Positions 3,542-19,015 of a stretch of DNA of 22,773 nt are shown here, piece after piece. The position numbers and the translations under genes were made by a program. Numbering within the stretch: the first letter of the stretch is position 1; the number at the start of each line of letters is the position of its first letter. Source of the stretch: a virus. The DNA is taken from UHGV virus genome UHGV-0256221. One strand, written 5' to 3'. A model generated the notes under the pieces. It saw only the letters and a list, made by a program, of their open reading frames with translations. It was not told where the DNA came from and ran no database searches.

Positions 3542-6500
3542 TTATGCCAAACGCAGCGCTTCAAGGCGGCGCATATCGAAATCATTCAGTTCGTCGGTGT
3601 AGTCGGCGGTGATCGGCGCTGGCCACTCACCCGTATCAAATCCGGTTGCGATGGCTCGCATGGCATTTCGATACTCGAGCATGCCCAGTTCCAGCAGTTC
3701 AGTGGACGCTTCAATAATGGCGATCCAGTGGTAGTTCTCGTCTTTGTTGACGAAAATCCAGAAGAACTGGTCAAGCGCTGCCGTCTCGCAGTACATGGCC
3801 GCGCTTAGGTGATAATCGCGGTCGATGATTTCGCGGTGTAACTTGGCGCGCAGACCTTCCTGTTTGATGTTCCACATGCTGATGGTTTTCAGGTCGGCAC
3901 CGATGCGCACACCGTCCAGGTCGATTTCCAGATCCGGACGTACACGGACTTCCAGCCCGGTTTCGTCGTCGAACCCGAAATAACTCACTTCTACAGCGCG
4001 GTTCGGGTGCGTTAGCAGCTTGCCGGCGGTCGGGTGCTGGAGCAGAGCTTTCTGGATATTCAGCGCGGTACTTAGCTGCTGGCGGGTGACCAGTACTTTT
4101 CCTTCAGGATTCTCGCGCCATGCATCGATAAGTTCGTCGGCAAATACAGCACCCGGGTTTACTGCCTTCACGGCCTGAATCAGATCTGCCTTCGTGCCGG
4201 ATACTTTCAGTGGCTGCGGCTTCTGCGCTTCCTGCGCGACCAGATCAGGATTGATGATTGCCAGTTGCTCAAGCAGCGAGTCGCGGCTACCGCTGGTTTT
4301 TACCGGCGCAGGCTTATTGGATTCTTCCTCTACCAAATCGGCGTTGATGACCGCCAGTTGCTCCAACAGCGCGTCGCGGCTGCCGCTGGTTTTCACTTGA
4401 GCGGGCAGGGTAGCGTTGTACTCTTTGATGCATGCTTTCATGGCAGCAGCAGTGAAGTTTTTTTCGTCGCCAACAATCCGCTTAAACTCAGCAGGCAATT
4501 CGAGATACGCCAGACCGATCGCGTCTTTATCGCCGCCTAAAGGCACTTGAGCGGGCAGGGTAGCGTTGTGCGCTTCCAGTAGCGCTTTGATATCGTCAGC
4601 AGATAGCGGCGCTGGCAGGCTAGTGTTGTACTCTTCCAGTAACGCTTTGATATCTTCGACTGACAGCAGCGCCTGCAGGCTGGCATTGTATTCATCGATA
4701 AACGCGCGGATCGTTGCGGTTGTCGTGAATGCGCCTTCCGGGATTTCTGGCTCAACGCTGAATTCAGCATCCAGTTGCTCAGGTTGCAGCGCCAGTGCAT
4801 GTACCAGGTTCCCCATATCCAGAACCGGAGAGCGTTCCTTCGTGATGGTCTTCTCAACATGGCGCGCATTGAAGTACATCAGGCTCACGCGAGCATCTTT
4901 AACCTGGGTGCTGCTGATACCGTTGGCGGCGTGATATACCTCGTTTGGTAAACCTTCATAACGGCCAGGCTCGAAGAATGCCGGGTACTCGATGGCTGGT
5001 TCTGCCTGCAGGTCTTCCGGCTCGCTGGCTGTTTCCATCGGCACTAATTCCTGTGCTGTGTCGTCTGCCGGAATCGGCGCTTCAGTTGTCAGAGTTTCCT
5101 GCTTGTTGGTGTCATGCTCCTGCGTGTCCAGTTCTTCTTTCAAACCGGATTCCATCGCTGCATATGTTGCATCACCCATCACAGCACCGCAGTCCTGGCA
5201 ATGCCCGCCACCAATAGCGCCGCATCCGGTACACACGGTTTCCGTTACGGTATCTGCCTGCGAATCATCTTCCACAGTACCTTCGCCTGCTGGTAACGCA
5301 GCGCTATTTTCGGCTTGGGGTTGCTCAGTCGTTTCCATCTGGCCATTGTTGGTGGTCTCGCTTTTGTTGCCGTAAAGTTTTGAGTTCGCCATCAAACCCT
5401 CAACCGAAAAGATGCCACCGCCAACGTTGGTGACTTCAGGCTGTTTAGTAGATGTCAGGTCTTCGCGCACCCACTTCGGATCTTCCGGGTCGCTGATTCC
5501 ATCAACAAATTCCCCGCGCTCCGCTGCGAGTGTGTCACTGATTTCCTTATCCCAGCTTTGTGCAGGGTTATGGCGAGCAGCCTTCAATGTTTCATCAGAA
5601 GGTTTTTCGTGGTTGCTTTCTGTCAGGTTAGCGTTGATGTATCCACTGAGACGGCCGGGATACTGGTAATGCTCTGGGTGGCACTCCCTGATCAGCGCGA
5701 AAATGGCTGCGCGGGAGTAATCGAGTATTCCGGCACGTTTGCGAAGAGCTGCTGACCATTCTTTGAAAGGGCTTTCTTTTTTGCTGACGATCTCTTTCGC
5801 CCGACGATAAACACCACCAGGAATGTCGTAGATGTTAAAGTCCATCGGTAGTGTGGCGAGTGCAATTTCAATGTCTAATGAGTCCAGCGTGTGGGTTAAC
5901 TCAGGGTTACGGTCGGTTTTATTGCCGCCGCCTGCGTTTGTGCCTACGTCAGTTCGTGTAACCGACTGTTTATCCAGCGTCGCCTTATTATGTTTTGCGA
6001 ACCACTTCGCCGTTACATCGTCGCGGGAAACGCGATCGCTCTGATGTGTATTGATCCATTCTGCAAAGAAGGTGATCAGGTCATTGAGCATCGGAGCTTT
6101 ACCGTCCACCGGCCAGATTGATTTTGTGGCCGTAAACAGGTCGGCCAGTGTTTCCGGGAACACGTGTTCAATAGGGCGAGTTTTGAAATCACGCGCGGAC
6201 AGCAATACGTTCTGTGCGTATGTTTCATCCATATCCAGCTCTACACGCGTAATCTCCTGCAACTGCTCAGTAGTCAGCGTATCGAAAAGACCGTACAGCC
6301 AGGTGCCGAGTACTTTTTTCTCATATGGAAATTTGCCGTAGGCGAACAGGTCAACAGCTTCCTTCTCTGTTTCTTGCGTAGTGGTTACTGCGTGCGCATC
6401 GGTAGACGCGGTGGCATCGGCGGCAGCCGCTGGTGTGCTTTCATTGTGAAATGCATCATCAGGCTTGCTGCCTGGCTTCAGTTGCCAGGTGCGCATGTCT

Positions 6501-8970: not shown

Positions 8971-9589
8971 CCTGTTGGTGAAGTACTCGTGGAGTAGTTG
9001 GTTCTTGAGGTAATTGGATGATAACAGGTTGCTGCGCTACTGGTTGAACTACGGGCGGATCACTCTTCAAGGCAGAAACAAGACTAGGTAATGCAACGAC
9101 AACCGCAATGATAACGCCAAAAATAGCAAGCCTAGTGGAAATACCTGATTGAATACCGCCAATCGCAGTGTTTATTCCTGTAATTTGCCCTTGTATACCT
9201 TCGAATTTGCCATTGATGGCTTTTACATCCCCATCAACGCTATCCATTTTCCCTTCAATTTTAGAAGAAATAGAGCTAATAGATGAATTGAGCGATGCCA
9301 GCTGAACGTTCATATTCTCGCGTGACAAAGCCATTTCAGCTCTAATCGAAGATGCAATGGACTCCATCTCCGCCTTATTGGCAGCTAGAAGTGCTTGCAT
9401 TTCTTCACGGCTAACTGATGACATTTCATTTCCCCCATCAGTTTCATTAGCTTCATCTGTTGATTTGATAAAGTTAGTATACATTTCTTCTTTATCGACG
9501 CGTAGTCTGTTTTGAACATTGGGGTACAGGTCATCTTTATCAATGCCAGAACCGCAGTCTGGGACAGCTTTGAGAGATGGGCCCATCAC
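8957..9589 (-). CDS. Tail-anchored coiled-coil membrane protein (candidate exclusion / abortive-infection effector)
   Basis: 210 aa; long heptad-like Ser/Ala/Glu-rich region, single C-terminal hydrophobic helix (LAIFGVIIAVVVALPSLVSAL), Pro/Gln-rich tail; start overlaps the upstream stop (ATGA); AT-rich. Confidence 0.55.
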   Translation of the reverse strand: MMGPSLKAVPDCGSGIDKDDLYPNVQNRLRVDKEEMYTNFIKSTDEANETDGGNEMSSVSREEMQALLAANKAEMESIASSIRAEMALSRENMNVQLASLNSSISSISSKIEGKMDSVDGDVKAINGKFEGIQGQITGINTAIGGIQSGISTRLAIFGVIIAVVVALPSLVSALKSDPPVVQPVAQQPVIIQLPQEPTTPRVLHQQEKSK

Positions 9590-9948
9590 TTCCCATCCTC
9601 TCCTTGATCTTCTTTTCTTTTATTAATCAGTGTCCTGGCTTTTTTATAAGAAAAAAGCAGTACATGTGCGCAGTGATCACACGTGATTCGAAATAGTGGC
9701 ATACCGCCAGGATATGTCACAGCACTATCAGTATCAGGTTTGTATTGTGCATAACTAAGTGTTTCGATCACATGATGTTTTGGCTGATTTTCTTCTACAT
9801 CAAGATCAAAGGCACCAACTACAGACCATGACTGGTTCCCGCAGATTTGGCAAGTTATTGGTTTTTTGAATGAATTTATGAAATCAATGAACTCATCCGC
9901 TGTGATAATCTCGGAGTTTGCTTCACTATGAAATAATTCCGATTTCAT
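9586..9948 (-). CDS. Zinc-ribbon protein, first gene downstream of the repressor gene
   Basis: ORF 9586..9972 (TTG); likely ATG at 9948 (MKSELFH) with AAGGA RBS; CQICG ... CDHCAH; only 44 bp after the repressor stop, no terminator between; AT-rich. Confidence 0.5.
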   Translation of the reverse strand: MKSELFHSEANSEIITADEFIDFINSFKKPITCQICGNQSWSVVGAFDLDVEENQPKHHVIETLSYAQYKPDTDSAVTYPGGMPLFRITCDHCAHVLLFSYKKARTLINKRKEDQGEDGK

Positions 9949-9992
9949 AATTATGATCCTTTTTTGGGCCAAAGTAGATAAAAAGTACAGTT

Positions 9993-10676
9993 TTACAATC
10001 GGTTATACTTTATTGATTCATGAATCAATGCCTTACCCATTACGTAGAGTTGATCCTGATTACCTTCGTTAATGTACCACTTCTCATAAGCTGAGTTATC
10101 AGACAAAACTGCCAACCTATCGCCCTGCATCTGCAAGCGCTTCACATGGAAATGTTGTCCGAAAACGAACGCATAAACACCGTCGACCTTGAAGTTTCTT
10201 ACAGAAATATCGAAAAACAATCTGTCACCAGACTGTATAGTTGGACACATGCTGTCGCCATCGACCGTCATTACTTTTACGTCTTCCTGAGAACGATTTC
10301 CGAAGAGTGAACGAGCGTGTTCGGTTGTGAACTCAATGGCGTGTAGAACCTCAACAAACTCAGAAATCATGAAAGAACCTGGCCCCGCGCTAAATGTCAG
10401 GTCAAGTACGTCAACTCTGAATATGTTTGAGTCTTTTTTTGTCGCGGTAATGGGAGGCGGTAGCTGGCCATCGTTACGCATCGGTCCGGATCCCGTGGAA
10501 AGCCATTCAGGGCGAACATTGAGAACAGAAGCTATCTCGACCGTTTTTCTTGAGCTTGATGCACCATTTAGCAGCTTGTTAACACTTGACTGTGCCATGC
10601 CAACTGCCTTAGCTAGCTTGCCCTGTGTATAACCCGCCTCATTCATTGCGCGATCTAATCGCTCAGAAAAACTCAT
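9993..10676 (-). CDS. CI-like repressor (N-terminal HTH, C-terminal S24 LexA-like peptidase domain)
   Basis: 227 aa; HTH (YTQGKLAKAVGMAQSSVNKLL); S24 motifs (GDSMCPT, KR); divergent from the cro-like gene across an operator-rich region. Confidence 0.85.
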   Translation of the reverse strand: MSFSERLDRAMNEAGYTQGKLAKAVGMAQSSVNKLLNGASSSRKTVEIASVLNVRPEWLSTGSGPMRNDGQLPPPITATKKDSNIFRVDVLDLTFSAGPGSFMISEFVEVLHAIEFTTEHARSLFGNRSQEDVKVMTVDGDSMCPTIQSGDRLFFDISVRNFKVDGVYAFVFGQHFHVKRLQMQGDRLAVLSDNSAYEKWYINEGNQDQLYVMGKALIHESIKYNRL

Positions 10677-10707: not shown

Positions 10708-10778
10708 TTATCGCCACAGCGATTAATAAGCAAAAAATCGCATAGGCGATTGACATTCGTTAAAGCGATAAACATAAT
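10708..10778. promoter_or_regulatory. OR operator cluster with PR (and presumed divergent PRM)
   Basis: Three ATCGC-N4-GCGAT elements (about 10710-10723, 10737-10750, weaker 10756-10769); PR -35 TTGACA (10750-10755), 17-bp spacer, -10 CATAAT (10773-10778). Confidence 0.6.
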
Positions 10779-10805
10779 CAACCTAAATTGATAGAAGGAG
10801 CGATT

Positions 10806-11036
10806 ATGAAAAACCCTGCTGTAGAAAAAGCGATTGCAATCGCCGGTAGTCAGAAAGAGCTAGCGAAGCGATGTGGTAAGGCCCAATCCACGGTCTGTGA
10901 CTGGTTAAATGGGAAAAAACAAATCTCCCCGATCCATGTTCCTGTTTTGGTAAAGGCAAGCGAAGGACAGATTCAAGCTCATGAATTCCGTCCCGACCTT
11001 CCTGAATTGTTTCCGCATCCACATTCAGCCGCCTGA
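10806..11036 (+). CDS. Cro-like / YdaS-family HTH regulator
   Basis: ORF 10788..11036; ATG at 10806 with GAAGGAG RBS; small HTH protein (SQKELAKRCGKAQSTVCDWLNG) transcribed from PR. Confidence 0.7.
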   Translation: MKNPAVEKAIAIAGSQKELAKRCGKAQSTVCDWLNGKKQISPIHVPVLVKASEGQIQAHEFRPDLPELFPHPHSAA

Positions 11037-15404: not shown

Positions 15405-15661
15405 TGGAACCTCAACTGGAATACGCCACGAAACGCATCGTCGAACTGGAAAACCTGCTGCTGGTGGATGTGACCGAAACCGTCTGGCCTGCTGAGGTGG
15501 GAATGGTATATAGCCAGATTGAAAGTGCCGGGGATCTCCCGGCGCATCACCAGCGCCGCCTGAAGCATCACATCAACCGTATGTGGCTGGAGAAAATGCC
15601 GGTACCAGCCATCGTAAACGCCGCCCAGTCACTGGCCACCGCTATGGAGAAATACGCGTGA
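15404..15661 (+). CDS. Hypothetical nin-region protein
   Basis: 85 aa; stop overlaps the GTG start of the methyltransferase-like gene. Confidence 0.45.
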   Translation: MEPQLEYATKRIVELENLLLVDVTETVWPAEVGMVYSQIESAGDLPAHHQRRLKHHINRMWLEKMPVPAIVNAAQSLATAMEKYA

Positions 15662-15816
15662 GAGAAATCATCGTTGATAACTTTGCCGGCGGCGGCGGGG
15701 CGAGCACGGGCATTGAGCTGGCGATCGGTCGTAGTGTGGATATTGCGATTAACCACGACCCGAACGCTGTTGCGATGCACACTACGAACCACCCGGATAC
15801 ACTGCACTACTGGTGA
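15658..15816 (+). CDS. C5-methyltransferase N-terminal segment (motif I), ends at an in-frame stop
   Basis: GTG at 15658; translation (M)REIIVDNFAGGGGASTG...NHPDTLHYW-stop carries the AdoMet motif I; the rest of the enzyme continues in another frame. Confidence 0.5.
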   Translation: MREIIVDNFAGGGGASTGIELAIGRSVDIAINHDPNAVAMHTTNHPDTLHYW

Positions 15817-17374
15817 GACCTTCGAGGCTTTCTGCGGCATGCTATCCGGTGGTATTCCTGCCGGTCATCCGGCGCTGGCGGAGTGCTGCGAGTTCCTGGG
15901 TATTACTGCCGACGGCGAACTGGCGCAGCAACTGGTGGCCGGGCTGGGTTACGCTGTTGATCATCGTGAGCTGCGCGCCTGCGACTTTGGCGCACCGACC
16001 ATCAGGAAGCGTTTCTTCATGGTAATGCGTTGCGATGGTATGCCGGTGACCTGGCCGGACCCGACCCACGGCGACCCGAAATCTCCAGCTGTGCAGAGTG
16101 GAAAGTTGGCGCCATGGCGTACAGCTGCGGAGTGTATCGACTGGACCATTCCGGCACCGTCGATATTCGACCGCAAAAAGCCACTGGCTGAAAATACGCT
16201 CAAACGCATCGCTCGTGGCATCCAGCGGTTTGTGATCGAGAGCGCGTCGCCGTTCATCGTCAAGTGCAACCACACGACGACCAAAGGGAAATACGACTGT
16301 TTCCGTGGGCAGGCGCTGAGAGAGCCTCTGCAGACCATTACGAAAACCCACGGCTACGCGTTAGCCGTTCCACACCTGACAAAGTTCCGTACTGGCGCAA
16401 CCGGGCAGCCCGTTACCGAACCTGTGCCCACTGTCACAGCTGGGACGTCGGTGCGCCCGGGCGGCAATGGTCATGCTCTTGGGTTGGTTGAGGCGGCGAT
16501 CACTCCGTTCCTGGCTGGCAATGGGGGCAGTGAATATCAGGCGAAGCCGCGCCCACTAAATAAACCCGCTCACACTATTCTGAAGCAATCGCGCAGTTGC
16601 CTGGTGGCTCCGGTTATTGCCCGGCAGTTTGGTGCCAGTATCGGCCACCGGGCAGACGAACCGAGCGCAACTATCACCGCGGGCGGTGGCGGTAAATCAC
16701 AGCTGGTGACGCCAACGCTGATTCAGATGGGTTATGGCGAACGTCCAGGGCAAGAGCCGCGTGTGCTGAAACTTGATAGCCCGCTTGGCACGGTCACCGC
16801 TGGCGGTAATAAATTTGCGGTTGCCGCTGCACATCTCATTAAACATTACGGCGGGAATTACCAGGGCGCCGGAGTGGGGATGGATGAGCCGATGCATTCT
16901 GTGACCACCGTCGATCACCATGCTGTGGTTGCTTCTCACCTGGTTAAATTGCGCGGAACCTGCCGGGATGGACAACGCACCGACGCGCCAATGCCGACTG
17001 TCACGGCTGGTGGCCTGCATGTAGGGAACGTTGAAACTCATCTTGCCGTAGATGAGTACGACGAAGAACGCGCGCAACAAACGCTGGCGTTCCTGCGCAA
17101 ATACTGTGGTGAGGATTGTACCGGGTTGGTGGTGATCGATGGCGTGACGTATCGCATTGTTGATATTGGTATGCGCATGTTACAGCCGCGCGAACTGTAC
17201 CGGGCGCAGGGCTTCCCGGACTGGTACATCATCGACCAGGACTACCGGGGCAAGAAGTACGCGAAGGATAAACAGGTTGCCCGCTGCGGTAACGCGGTGC
17301 CACCGCCGTTCGCTGAAGCGCTGGTGCGTGCTAATTTGCCGGAACTATGCCAATCGAAACAAATAGCGGCTTAG
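15674..17374 (+). CDS. DNA (cytosine-5)-methyltransferase-like protein, main body in shifted frame; no canonical PCQ seen
   Basis: 566-aa ORF (TTG start is an over-extension) with motif VIII-like LRACDFGAPTIRKRFF, five P-x-x-T-V-T-A-G-G repeats, C-terminal motif IX/X-like QPRELYRAQGFPDWY and CGNAVPPPFAEAL. Confidence 0.55.
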   Translation: MITLPAAAGRARALSWRSVVVWILRLTTTRTLLRCTLRTTRIHCTTGETFEAFCGMLSGGIPAGHPALAECCEFLGITADGELAQQLVAGLGYAVDHRELRACDFGAPTIRKRFFMVMRCDGMPVTWPDPTHGDPKSPAVQSGKLAPWRTAAECIDWTIPAPSIFDRKKPLAENTLKRIARGIQRFVIESASPFIVKCNHTTTKGKYDCFRGQALREPLQTITKTHGYALAVPHLTKFRTGATGQPVTEPVPTVTAGTSVRPGGNGHALGLVEAAITPFLAGNGGSEYQAKPRPLNKPAHTILKQSRSCLVAPVIARQFGASIGHRADEPSATITAGGGGKSQLVTPTLIQMGYGERPGQEPRVLKLDSPLGTVTAGGNKFAVAAAHLIKHYGGNYQGAGVGMDEPMHSVTTVDHHAVVASHLVKLRGTCRDGQRTDAPMPTVTAGGLHVGNVETHLAVDEYDEERAQQTLAFLRKYCGEDCTGLVVIDGVTYRIVDIGMRMLQPRELYRAQGFPDWYIIDQDYRGKKYAKDKQVARCGNAVPPPFAEALVRANLPELCQSKQIAA

Positions 17375-17435
17375 AGTCTGAGTTTCAGGGCAGGACGTAA
17401 CAAATCCTGCTACTTCAATGACGTAGATTTAAACT

Positions 17436-17444
17436 TGATATAAT
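17436..17444 (+). promoter_or_regulatory. Candidate extended -10 promoter (TGaTATAAT) for the 17474 gene
   Basis: Perfect TATAAT preceded by TG; weak -35; about 30 bp before the RBS. Confidence 0.35.
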
Positions 17445-17473
17445 TGGGCTCCAATCGACAAAGGAGCTATAAA

Positions 17474-17710
17474 ATGCATCACTATATATTTCCACGCAAT
17501 AACGGCATAACACTGATTAAAACTGAGGAATTTATTCCTCAAGGCTCAATTTACGATATAGATGGTGGAGACCATTTGTGTATGCATGTGACGCTTAAAG
17601 ATGGTACTTACGGGTATCTTCTACCTGTAGGAACCGCCTACAATCATCAATGGGTCATTGGACAAATAAACGCTGTTCGCCCAAATCCACTGGCATTTGA
17701 TATCAACTAG
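17474..17710 (+). CDS. Hypothetical small protein (78 aa), stand-alone cassette
   Basis: ATG at 17474 with AAGGAG RBS; AT-rich; own promoter-like element and terminator. Confidence 0.5.
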   Translation: MHHYIFPRNNGITLIKTEEFIPQGSIYDIDGGDHLCMHVTLKDGTYGYLLPVGTAYNHQWVIGQINAVRPNPLAFDIN

Positions 17711-17741
17711 CCAGATATTGAGATGAATATTTGAAAACTAC

Positions 17742-17767
17742 AAAACCGCTTCGGCGGTTTTTCTTTG
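17742..17767 (+). terminator. Intrinsic terminator
   Basis: AAAACCGC-TTCG-GCGGTTTTTCTTTG hairpin with T-run, about 30 bp after the 17710 stop. Confidence 0.6.
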
Positions 17768-17802
17768 TATAATCCTTCTCAAAGCATTGAGGGGGATTCA
17801 TC

Positions 17803-18060
17803 ATGTCTAGCCATAACATCGCAGCAAAATCAAAAGAAGAACAGGACAAGGTGAACGTTGACCTTGCTGCTTCTGGTGTGGCGTACAAAGAACGCCTAAA
17901 CATGCCAGTTATCGCTGAGCAGGTGGCCCGCGAGCAGCCAGAGAATCTTCGCGAATACTTCATGGAGCGCGTTCGTTACTACCGCGAGCAGAGCCTGACG
18001 CTGCCGAAAGCATCCGATTCGCGTTATCTGGATATGGCTGCGCAGAATGAGAAGAAGTAA
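17803..18060 (+). CDS. Hypothetical small protein (85 aa), first of a coupled pair
   Basis: GAGGGGGA RBS; TATAAT about 30 bp upstream; stop overlaps next start (TAATGG). Confidence 0.5.
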
Positions 18061-18314
18061 TGGGCTGCCTCATTGTAAGCGGAATCAAGTTTTACGTTCT
18101 GGCAGAAGGTGACTCATATCCCGATCCGCATAATGATAATCGGTATGTCGGTGCATATGCCGTATTCCCGTTTGAGGGAAAGTGGGTTGCTCAGAAGTAT
18201 TTCAGGGGAGGACGCTGGAGTGATATCACCGAACGCCGATTTAACACTGAAAACGAGGCATTCAACTTCACATACGAATACGCGTTTCTCCCGGAAAACC
18301 GCTACAAATATTAA
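18060..18314 (+). CDS. Hypothetical small protein (84 aa), aromatic-rich
   Basis: Translationally coupled to the upstream gene. Confidence 0.5.
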   Translation: MGCLIVSGIKFYVLAEGDSYPDPHNDNRYVGAYAVFPFEGKWVAQKYFRGGRWSDITERRFNTENEAFNFTYEYAFLPENRYKY

Positions 18315-18336
18315 TCAGTTCAGCTAAAAGCAACAT

Positions 18337-18365
18337 TTGATTTTCCATTATCAGCTGTACATAAT
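18337..18365 (+). promoter_or_regulatory. Candidate sigma70 promoter before the 18416 gene
   Basis: TTGATT, 17 bp, CATAAT; followed by inverted repeat TGTCAG...CTGACA. Confidence 0.3.
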
Positions 18366-18415
18366 GTCAGTGTCAGCCTGAACAACTGACAACTTGATGC
18401 GCCACGGAGAGTACC

Positions 18416-19015
18416 ATGGCGCACGAACTACAACTCATTAAGCAATCATCAGGAATCCTGATCCCCGCTACGCCGGAGACCAGCGATATTCTGCAATCAA
18501 AAATCAAACTCGGCGCCGTGCTGGTAGCCGAATTTCGTCAGGTGAGGAATCCCGCATTCCATCGCCGTTTTTTTGCGCTCCTGAATCTCGGGTTTGAATA
18601 CTGGGAACCTACTGGAGGGGCGATCTCCTCCAACGAGCGCAAACTGGTAACCGGCTACGCCAAATTCCTTGCCTCATTCGCGGGAAGTGAAGCTGCACTC
18701 CTGGATGCAGCTGAGCAATATCTGGAGCGTATCGCTGATAAGCGAGCCGGTAGCATTAGCATCTGCAAATCCTATGATGCTTATCGTGCATGGGTGATCA
18801 TCGAGTCTGGTCACTACGACGCCATTCAGCTTCCCGACGGCACCCTTCGCAAACACCCCCGCAGCATTGCCTTCGCCAACATGGACGAAACCGAGTTCCA
18901 GCAGCTGTACAAAGCCGCGCTTGATGTCCTCTGGCGCTGGATATTGTCAAAAGCGTTCACGGACCAGCGCGAGGCGGAGAACGCCGCTGCGCAGCTCATG
19001 AGCTTCGCGGGGTGA
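18416..19015 (+). CDS. nin-region protein (DUF1367-like, from memory)
   Basis: 199-aa ORF; stop overlaps next start. Confidence 0.45.
   Translation: MAHELQLIKQSSGILIPATPETSDILQSKIKLGAVLVAEFRQVRNPAFHRRFFALLNLGFEYWEPTGGAISSNERKLVTGYAKFLASFAGSEAALLDAAEQYLERIADKRAGSISICKSYDAYRAWVIIESGHYDAIQLPDGTLRKHPRSIAFANMDETEFQQLYKAALDVLWRWILSKAFTDQREAENAAAQLMSFAG

Follow-up and report, generated by a model that had tools for sequence, protein, structure and literature searches.

A probable moron stacked on a Hot-type theta operon in the nin region of a lambdoid Escherichia coli prophage

What are the three small genes that lie between the cytosine methyltransferase gene and the nin genes of UHGV virus genome UHGV-0256221, and are they expressed from signals of their own? 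This stretch of 22,773 nucleotides, analysed at its full length and called the window here, is a lambdoid (Rac/mEp237-like) Escherichia coli prophage, and the region in question (positions 17,375-18,336) has the same sequence (100% identity) in the chromosomes of strains H5 and H6. An earlier note made from the sequence had described two AT-rich cassettes, one with a single gene (g1) and one with two coupled genes (g2 and g3), had likened both to phage morons, and could assign none of the three proteins. The features that it listed (the open reading frames (ORFs), both Shine-Dalgarno sites, the TATAAT elements, the hairpin and the TAATG overlap) are all present where it had placed them. We find that g2 is a homologue of theta, a subunit of DNA polymerase III (Pol III), of the type of phage P1 Hot, and that all three genes are under purifying selection. 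The segment likely consists of two accessory units, stacked one after the other and shuffled independently: a moron that carries g1, and then a Hot-type theta operon that carries g2 and g3. The region is an instance of two known kinds, the moron and the Hot-type theta gene, and is mostly recognisable from databases. The main value of the analysis is a correction: the gene that had been left unassigned is a Hot-type theta.

The second cassette comprises the following features (labels such as L025 denote retrieved loci):

17768 to 17802, plus strand: portable leader of cassette 2, with TATAAT (17768-17773), an inverted repeat of CCTTCTC (17774-17780) and GAGGGGG (17789-17795) that includes the Shine-Dalgarno sequence, and then ATTCATC
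17803 to 18060, plus strand: g2, the theta homologue, 85 amino acids, matched in Pfam, NCBIfam, PDB and PHROG
18060 to 18314, plus strand: g3, an aromatic-rich protein of 84 amino acids (phrog_17759), coupled to g2 by the TAATG overlap
18315 to 18353, plus strand: right end of the theta-g3 module, where homology with L025, L026 and L047 stops (18337-18353), the DUF1367 module starting from 18360-18391

The assignment of g2 stands above curated cut-offs, with 119.5 bits against Pfam PF06440 (cut-off 34.6; profile positions 2-68 of 70) and 106.1 bits against NCBIfam PRK10969 (cut-off 97). It matches phrog_1105 (E = 2e-40) and, among solved structures, Hot (1se7/2ido, E = 2e-34) and theta (1du2, E = 5e-19; also 5m1s_F). 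The gapless alignment with P1 Hot has 60 of 75 residues identical (80%) and that with E. coli theta 39 of 63 (62%). Members of the family are single-domain proteins of about 76-85 amino acids, and g2 aligns without gaps to their solved three-helix structures. The ratio of nonsynonymous to synonymous substitution rates (dN/dS) is 0.08, as expected under purifying selection, and the Prokaryotic Genome Annotation Pipeline (PGAP/RefSeq) labels the identical protein in H5 'DNA polymerase III subunit theta'. The earlier note had held that an evident relationship to phage proteins of structural or housekeeping type would speak against a moron; the homology found here is not of that kind, Hot being an accessory gene.

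Theta stabilises the proofreading subunit epsilon, and so can Hot, whose complex with epsilon186 has a solved structure; P1 otherwise depends on the host Pol III (PMC2528190, PMC3664792). Hot can replace theta, and it is known to complement delta-holE and dnaQ49 phenotypes (PMC2528190); PMC7556043, citing Chikova and Schaaper (2007), reports that P1 hot is expressed in lysogeny as well as in lytic growth. By its homology with P1 Hot, the product of g2 would bind the N-terminal exonuclease domain of epsilon (DnaQ), replace or join the host theta, and stabilise epsilon; it would thereby tune the host Pol III core, on which this phage depends because it encodes only O/P-type initiators. Like Hot, g2 belongs to a temperate phage that relies on the host Pol III, and the two proteins fall in the same Pfam and NCBIfam families. 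They differ in their setting: hot sits among the P1 late genes beside lxr and humD, whereas g2 is a nin-region gene of a lambdoid prophage, has a TATAAT-hairpin-Shine-Dalgarno leader rather than an Lpa-type late promoter, and is followed by the coupled g3, which P1 lacks.

Mobile theta genes are common. We found theta homologues in 37 phage records, among them lambdoid HK639 and several Klebsiella phages, and, of the 5426 complete E. coli genomes, 571 have mobile copies, at 377 plasmid and 232 chromosomal places. Given this commonness and the homology with Hot, g2 is a phage accessory gene of a known kind. A mobile theta is present in about one in ten complete E. coli genomes. A literature search on phage theta in anti-defence, on lambdoid theta homologues and on the function of DUF1508/YegP returned nothing relevant.

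Is g3 then a gene, and of what sort? It is real: dN/dS is 0.10-0.14 over 304 pairs. The aromatic richness remarked on earlier is borne out (22.6% aromatic residues), and the protein matches phrog_17759 (E = 5e-49). It has no match in Pfam, NCBIfam or PADLOC, sequence and profile searches against PDB returned nothing, and a tblastn search of the protein against phage records gave no match. The family comprises 19 clusters at 90% identity and, in an exhaustive profile search, 41 representatives at 50% identity, most of them domainless proteins of about 80 amino acids; four long matches in that search were set aside as artefacts of repeats or low complexity (CBM_14, WD40 and similar). The AlphaFold2 model of g3 is confident (predicted local distance difference test score, pLDDT, 87), and its fold matches are weak. 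The structure and remote-homology searches proposed in the earlier note assigned g2, and left g1 without an assignable family or fold and g3 without an assignable family. The nearest folds for g3, DUF1508/YegP-like (UPF0339) and DHHA1 domains, share no sequence-level relation with it (8-23% identity in superposition); unlike DHHA1 it has no GGGH motif, and the corresponding loop varies across the g3 family. This modelled resemblance is too weak to assign a function. The 'MGC' start might suggest a lipoprotein or membrane protein, a reading that we rejected since there is no signal peptide and no hydrophobic segment (grand average of hydropathy, GRAVY, -0.62).

More remote members of the g3 kin, which match the family profile at E = 1e-12 to 1e-18, occur at L091-L093 2501-2809, L094 165-416, L095 2501-2761 and L096-L098 2501-2812. 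Their slots lie after a P2-type gpA, just before the small terminase gene, and after a tail-fibre gene at a prophage end near fimbrial genes. The g3 product would be a conserved small alpha/beta protein, translated through coupling to g2, from a family that appears to fill accessory slots in several phage types.

The notion that g1, g3 or both are chance ORFs or part of a non-coding RNA unit is hardly credible. The lack of a Pfam family, and the omission of g3 by PGAP in strain H5, might suggest it; other RefSeq genomes annotate g3, and the dN/dS values (about 0.25 for g1), the conserved ORF lengths, PHROG family matches of about E = 1e-49 and the confident models (pLDDT 77 for g1) all argue for genes. 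No Rfam family reaches its gathering score in the window.

How tightly is g3 bound to theta? It lies directly 3' of a theta gene, with overlapping stop and start codons, in 38 of the 40 IMG/VR loci and in 9 of 11 from an earlier set, with varied flanking genes, and the closest representative at 50% identity overlaps theta as well. In the window the coupled ORFs described earlier share a single base. Identity across the loci ranges over 61-100% for g3 and 76-100% for g2. The two genes do come apart. In L036 and L039 (2963-3278, the counterpart of window 17766-17803 plus 18061-18337) a precise deletion has removed the theta ORF, and a GTG-start g3 is fused to the leader, so that g3 is retained alone under the theta leader signal; L009 also has g3 without theta. 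Conversely, g3 is absent from all 37 theta-carrying phage records, and 11 E. coli genomes hold both genes as against theta without g3 in about 560.

One explanation of the coupling is that g3 is a dedicated partner of phage theta and acts jointly with it on epsilon or on the Pol III core, binding theta-epsilon and altering proofreading or processivity. It would fit the overlap seen across many contexts, the pair and its leader travelling as a unit, and the nature of the alternative cargo in the slot, DinI, which is a small modulator of a host DNA-metabolism protein. We nevertheless judge it unlikely: g3 stays behind after the precise loss of theta or occurs without it, distant relatives occupy unrelated accessory slots, and theta of the same subtype lacks g3 in most E. 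coli elements and in Klebsiella phages, where theta is 81-87% identical over its full length. We see no sign that g3 acts with theta, and this, together with the Klebsiella phages, tells against our own reading of g2 and g3 as one operon. A bolder proposal is that the g3 family (about 40 clusters) is a previously unrecognised phage factor that works on the host replisome with phage theta, for instance by binding epsilon-theta to change fidelity or processivity, or by shielding it from a host or competitor function. We hold this to be decidedly improbable; if true, the TATAAT-hairpin-Shine-Dalgarno leader would be a dedicated switch, with the hairpin hiding the Shine-Dalgarno sequence in read-through transcripts while transcripts from the local promoter lack the left arm. 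Within the accessory-operon reading, g3 is most likely a small soluble protein-binding accessory factor that is co-expressed with theta.

The same evidence bears on the suggestion of the earlier note that both cassettes are morons with toxin-antitoxin, defence or anti-defence cargo and that g2 and g3 form a toxin-antitoxin pair. Two small overlapping genes in an accessory position invite the idea, g1 and g3 have no assigned function, and of the two coupled genes g3 shows the faster divergence, a frequent trait of arms-race genes. Yet g2 is a theta homologue, which means that the coupled pair is no enigmatic toxin-antitoxin cassette; its members are separable in both directions rather than co-inherited; none of the proteins matches a toxin, antitoxin or defence family in Pfam, NCBIfam or PADLOC; and the dN/dS of g3 is that of purifying, not diversifying, selection. 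We regard the suggestion as very unlikely. The sole PADLOC match in the pair, GajA to g2 (E = 0.006), falls over a coiled stretch of g2 and was rejected as its identity, and PADLOC gives the defence idea no credible match.

What drives cassette 2? The TATAAT (17768-17773) and the GAGGGGG(A) ribosome-binding site (17789-17796) reported earlier are both in place, and they turn out to belong to a leader of the form TATAAT-CCYYCTC-N8-GAGGGGG-N7-ATG that stands before six or more different first genes in nin-region slots of related prophages: theta, g3, a 60-amino-acid ORF (HK639 and strain 23713) and three other small ORFs. Copies lie at L014 1588, L090 1273, L079 3489, L017 5743, L027 2223 and L036/L039 2965. 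The stem is paired in 98% of cells, as against 42-69% when it is slid, with one CG/UA exchange. As a stable RNA hairpin it was set aside, since the energy is unsupportive and the comparative pairing lends it only modest support. The leader may serve as a promoter with a translational hairpin, as a terminator, or as a recombination linker.

The boundaries of the module are clear. Homology with unrelated contexts starts at the TATAAT (17766/17768) or at the preceding terminator (17742) and ends at 18314-18353. The terminator scan found none between g3 and the DUF1367 gene (18416..19015), so that cassette 2 is without a terminator of its own and its transcription would run into that gene (Pfam E = 1e-91). 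The mosaic joint between the theta-g3 and DUF1367 modules falls at 18337-18376, and the same stretch of spacer holds facing promoter-like hexamer pairs, TTGATT-17-CATAAT on the plus strand and CTGACA-18-GATAAT on the minus strand. For cassette 2, 'small accessory operon' is a better description than 'classic moron'. We picture unit 2 (17768 to about 18340) as a small operon that would be expressed under the portable TATAAT-hairpin-Shine-Dalgarno leader.

The closest parallel is the theta cassette of HK639 (HK639_60 and HK639_61), which occupies the same slot upstream of the NinB-position gene, has a TATAAT-CCCCTC...GAGGGG leader 213 nucleotides upstream, and has a small ORF that follows theta within 3 nucleotides. 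It differs in the extra 60-amino-acid ORF between leader and theta. HK639_61 (73 amino acids, acidic) was considered as a g3 analogue and rejected, as no similarity is detectable. Unlike both, the Klebsiella prophage-like phages carry theta alone.

For cassette 1 the question is whether it deserves the name of moron. Its features are these:

17297 to 17374, plus strand: 3' end of the cytosine-methyltransferase gene (stop TAG at 17372-17374), the left junction of cassette 1, from blastn against the loci
17418 to 17444, plus strand: promoter-like element, with a -35 ATGACG (17418-17423), a 15-nucleotide spacer and an extended -10 TGATATAAT (17436-17444)
17461 to 17466, plus strand: Shine-Dalgarno AAGGAG of g1, ending 7 nucleotides 5' of the ATG, by direct reading
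17474 to 17710, plus strand: g1, a 78-amino-acid protein (phrog_30079) with an ATG start, a GC content of 0.40, and five strands and one helix predicted
17742 to 17767, plus strand: intrinsic-terminator-like hairpin and T-run, with an 8-bp stem, a TTCG loop and then TTTTTCTTT, from the terminator scan

Morons, as defined in HK97 and HK022, are stretches of added DNA whose neighbours adjoin each other in a related phage; they are of deviant composition, have a promoter and a terminator of their own, and are expressed from the repressed prophage (PMC3594210). In L042 (IMG/VR) the methylase C-terminus and stop are followed after 6 nucleotides by a TATAAT equivalent to that at 17768; therefore 17371-17767 is a 397-nucleotide indel, which is also seen against L041. 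The gene, its extended -10 and its AAGGAG are as described earlier, and PGAP places the same start in H5. The terminator proposed there was picked up by the scan as well: the stem AAAACCGC-TTCG-GCGGTTTT spans 17742-17761 with the T-run next to it, and the 65-nucleotide stretch that holds it (17711-17775) folds at -16.4 kcal/mol (z = -3.4, beating 198 of 200 shuffles). Matches of isrK, rsmX and RsaJ at 17685-17764 were discarded, being far under threshold (E = 0.5-0.8) and produced by this same hairpin.

These signals are conserved. TGATATAAT is kept in all 36 g1-family loci retrieved, and a homologous terminator hairpin follows g1 in 28 of the 36; in mEp237 and L010 the hairpin carries one compensatory stem change, A-T to C-G. 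The g1 family amounts to five 90% clusters among 5.8 billion proteins and has two alleles, 42% identical to each other, of which the second is mEp237 gp47. A block of about 55 nucleotides with ATGACG-N15-TATAAT and the TG extension precedes both alleles, and the mEp237 authors' annotation calls it a promoter. The length of g1 is fixed at 78 amino acids, and its dN/dS of about 0.25 indicates purifying selection. Beyond a PHROG of unassigned function it has no match in Pfam, NCBIfam or PADLOC, and sequence and profile searches against PDB returned nothing. A lipoprotein or membrane reading was rejected (no signal peptide, no hydrophobic segment, GRAVY -0.15), as was paralogy with g3 (hhalign probability 0.1%), although the order of secondary-structure elements is similar.

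Composition separates the two cassettes. The GC content of g1 is 0.401 (0.34 at third codon positions), that of the methylase 0.587 and the window mean 0.515; both spacers that flank g1 are at 0.38-0.39 and the g3-DUF1367 spacer at 0.43. By contrast g2 (0.512, with 0.58 at third positions) equals the window mean, and g3 (0.463) is marginal. The description of two AT-rich cassettes therefore holds for the first and fails for the second. The three-gene region as a whole (0.445) lies at the 8th percentile among equal-sized windows, and the GC-skew plot that had been suggested, when run, displayed no discontinuity there. The lowest GC of the window lies elsewhere, in the immunity/KilA-N region at about 9160-10100 (0.32-0.39).

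Taken as far as sequence can go, the evidence supports cassette 1 (17375..17767) as a moron by the published definition: it is extra DNA of deviant composition with a promoter-like TGATATAAT, a weak -35 ATGACG, and a hairpin and T-run behind it. The moron idea did not carry over to cassette 2 as it had been described, which has host-like or marginal GC, a perfect TATAAT with no usable -35, and no terminator after it. Unit 1 (17375-17767) would thus comprise an extended -10 promoter, a Shine-Dalgarno sequence, the AT-rich 78-amino-acid g1 and an intrinsic terminator; its gain or loss would have been that of a single 397-nucleotide block, and it is probably transcribed independently, including from a repressed prophage. 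The predicted product of g1 is a small soluble beta-rich protein. Like the morons of HK97 and HK022 (e.g., HK97 gp15), cassette 1 is extra DNA with deviant GC and with putative promoter and terminator elements of its own; unlike them, its cargo has no known relatives beyond five sequence clusters. It is a clean, well-bounded candidate moron with an uncharacterised cargo, suited to a simple expression and phenotype test.

A competing account denies all three genes autonomous expression. They would be delayed-early genes read from pR, the TATAAT blocks would be recombination linkers, and the hairpin at 17742 a tR-type terminator. All the genes lie on the strand of the O/P-to-Q operon, neither element has a consensus -35, the mosaic joints fall exactly at the TATAAT/hairpin elements, duplicates of the methylase 3' end reappear as junctions, and P1 hot is under a phage late promoter. 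Several further observations weigh against local expression or against our division into units. A two-hexamer promoter scan of the window lists neither cassette promoter, which it misses because neither has a good -35. TGNTATAAT, which occurs once in the 22.8-kb window (within TGATATAAT), is not below chance at that count (41/100 shuffles, whole window), and in cassette 2 the TG is one base too near the TATAAT to form an extended -10. The terminator at 17742 is possibly not g1's own, because the hairpin also accompanies the theta unit in L010, L026 and L056. The leader hairpin of the window folds no better than shuffled sequence (-5.9 kcal/mol, z = 0.15), and its homologue in HK639, just upstream of theta in the nin region, was annotated by the authors as a terminator. 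Unit 2, finally, fails as a moron on composition, because the GC contents of g2 and g3 are host-like.

On the other side, TATAAT occurs only twice on the plus strand of the 22.8 kb, and each copy ends 29 nucleotides (starts 35 nucleotides) 5' of a cassette start codon. In 36 of 36 loci the extended -10 is unchanged, while the coding sequence downstream falls to 42% identity, and a leader placed before six different first genes fits an expression signal at least equally well. We consider read-through from pR a possible, if doubtful, explanation, and it is compatible with the gene identities given above, whose assignments it leaves unchanged. The best sigma-70 match in the window, TTGACA-17-CATAAT (11 of 12 positions, 10750-10778), stands just 5' of a cro-like ORF (10788..11036) and is presumably pR itself.

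If the segment is a stack of two units, what kind of place do they occupy? The element in H5 and H6 runs from an integrase gene that adjoins kch through RecE/RecT, an XRE repressor, O/P-type replication genes and the cytosine methyltransferase to g1, g2 and g3, and continues with the DUF1367 gene in the NinB position, ybcO, rusA, ylcG, Q, and the lysis and head genes. The three genes lie in the rightward early region, between the replication and methylase genes and the NinB-position gene. The corresponding slot of mEp237 reads methylase, promoter, gp47, terminator, DinI: the allele of g1, the promoter block and the terminator are shared, and the next cargo, there and in about 30 E. coli prophages, is DinI in place of theta-g3. 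Between gp47 and the terminator, mEp237 further differs by a 64-nucleotide copy of the methylase 3' end. DinI, a RecA-filament regulator, follows a g1 allele and terminator at L002 4135-4368, L011 3306-3539 and L062-L084, and some loci have theta-g3 and then DinI. The arrangement suggests that small modulators of host proteins for replication and repair gather in this nin-region slot. The conserved coupling of g3, and the fact that theta-g3 and DinI alternate in a single slot, offer a concrete handle on why phages carry theta. With the portable TATAAT-hairpin-Shine-Dalgarno leader, the coupling and the alternation are the leads that this locus provides, and they are modest ones.

The joint at which the cassettes meet the methylase recurs. 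Beside different cassettes in relatives, second copies or junctions of the last 64-126 nucleotides of the methylase gene (window 17297-17373) lie at L002 (mEp237) 3925-3988, L011 3096-3159, L041 1323-1448 and 2642-2716, L003 3701-3768 and L012 3360-3439. From these alignments, the methylase end looks like a recombination linker where cassettes stack.

Two minor observations complete the picture. The window contains no tRNA genes. Its methylase gene (about 15658-17374) has an internal deletion of about 268 nucleotides near 15808-15812 relative to the H5 allele (L001 16242-16508), with a shifted frame; of Pfam DNA_methylase, the C-terminal part (profile 266-320) is all that still matches, the N-terminal half with the catalytic motifs being lost, and the methyltransferase of the window is probably inactive.

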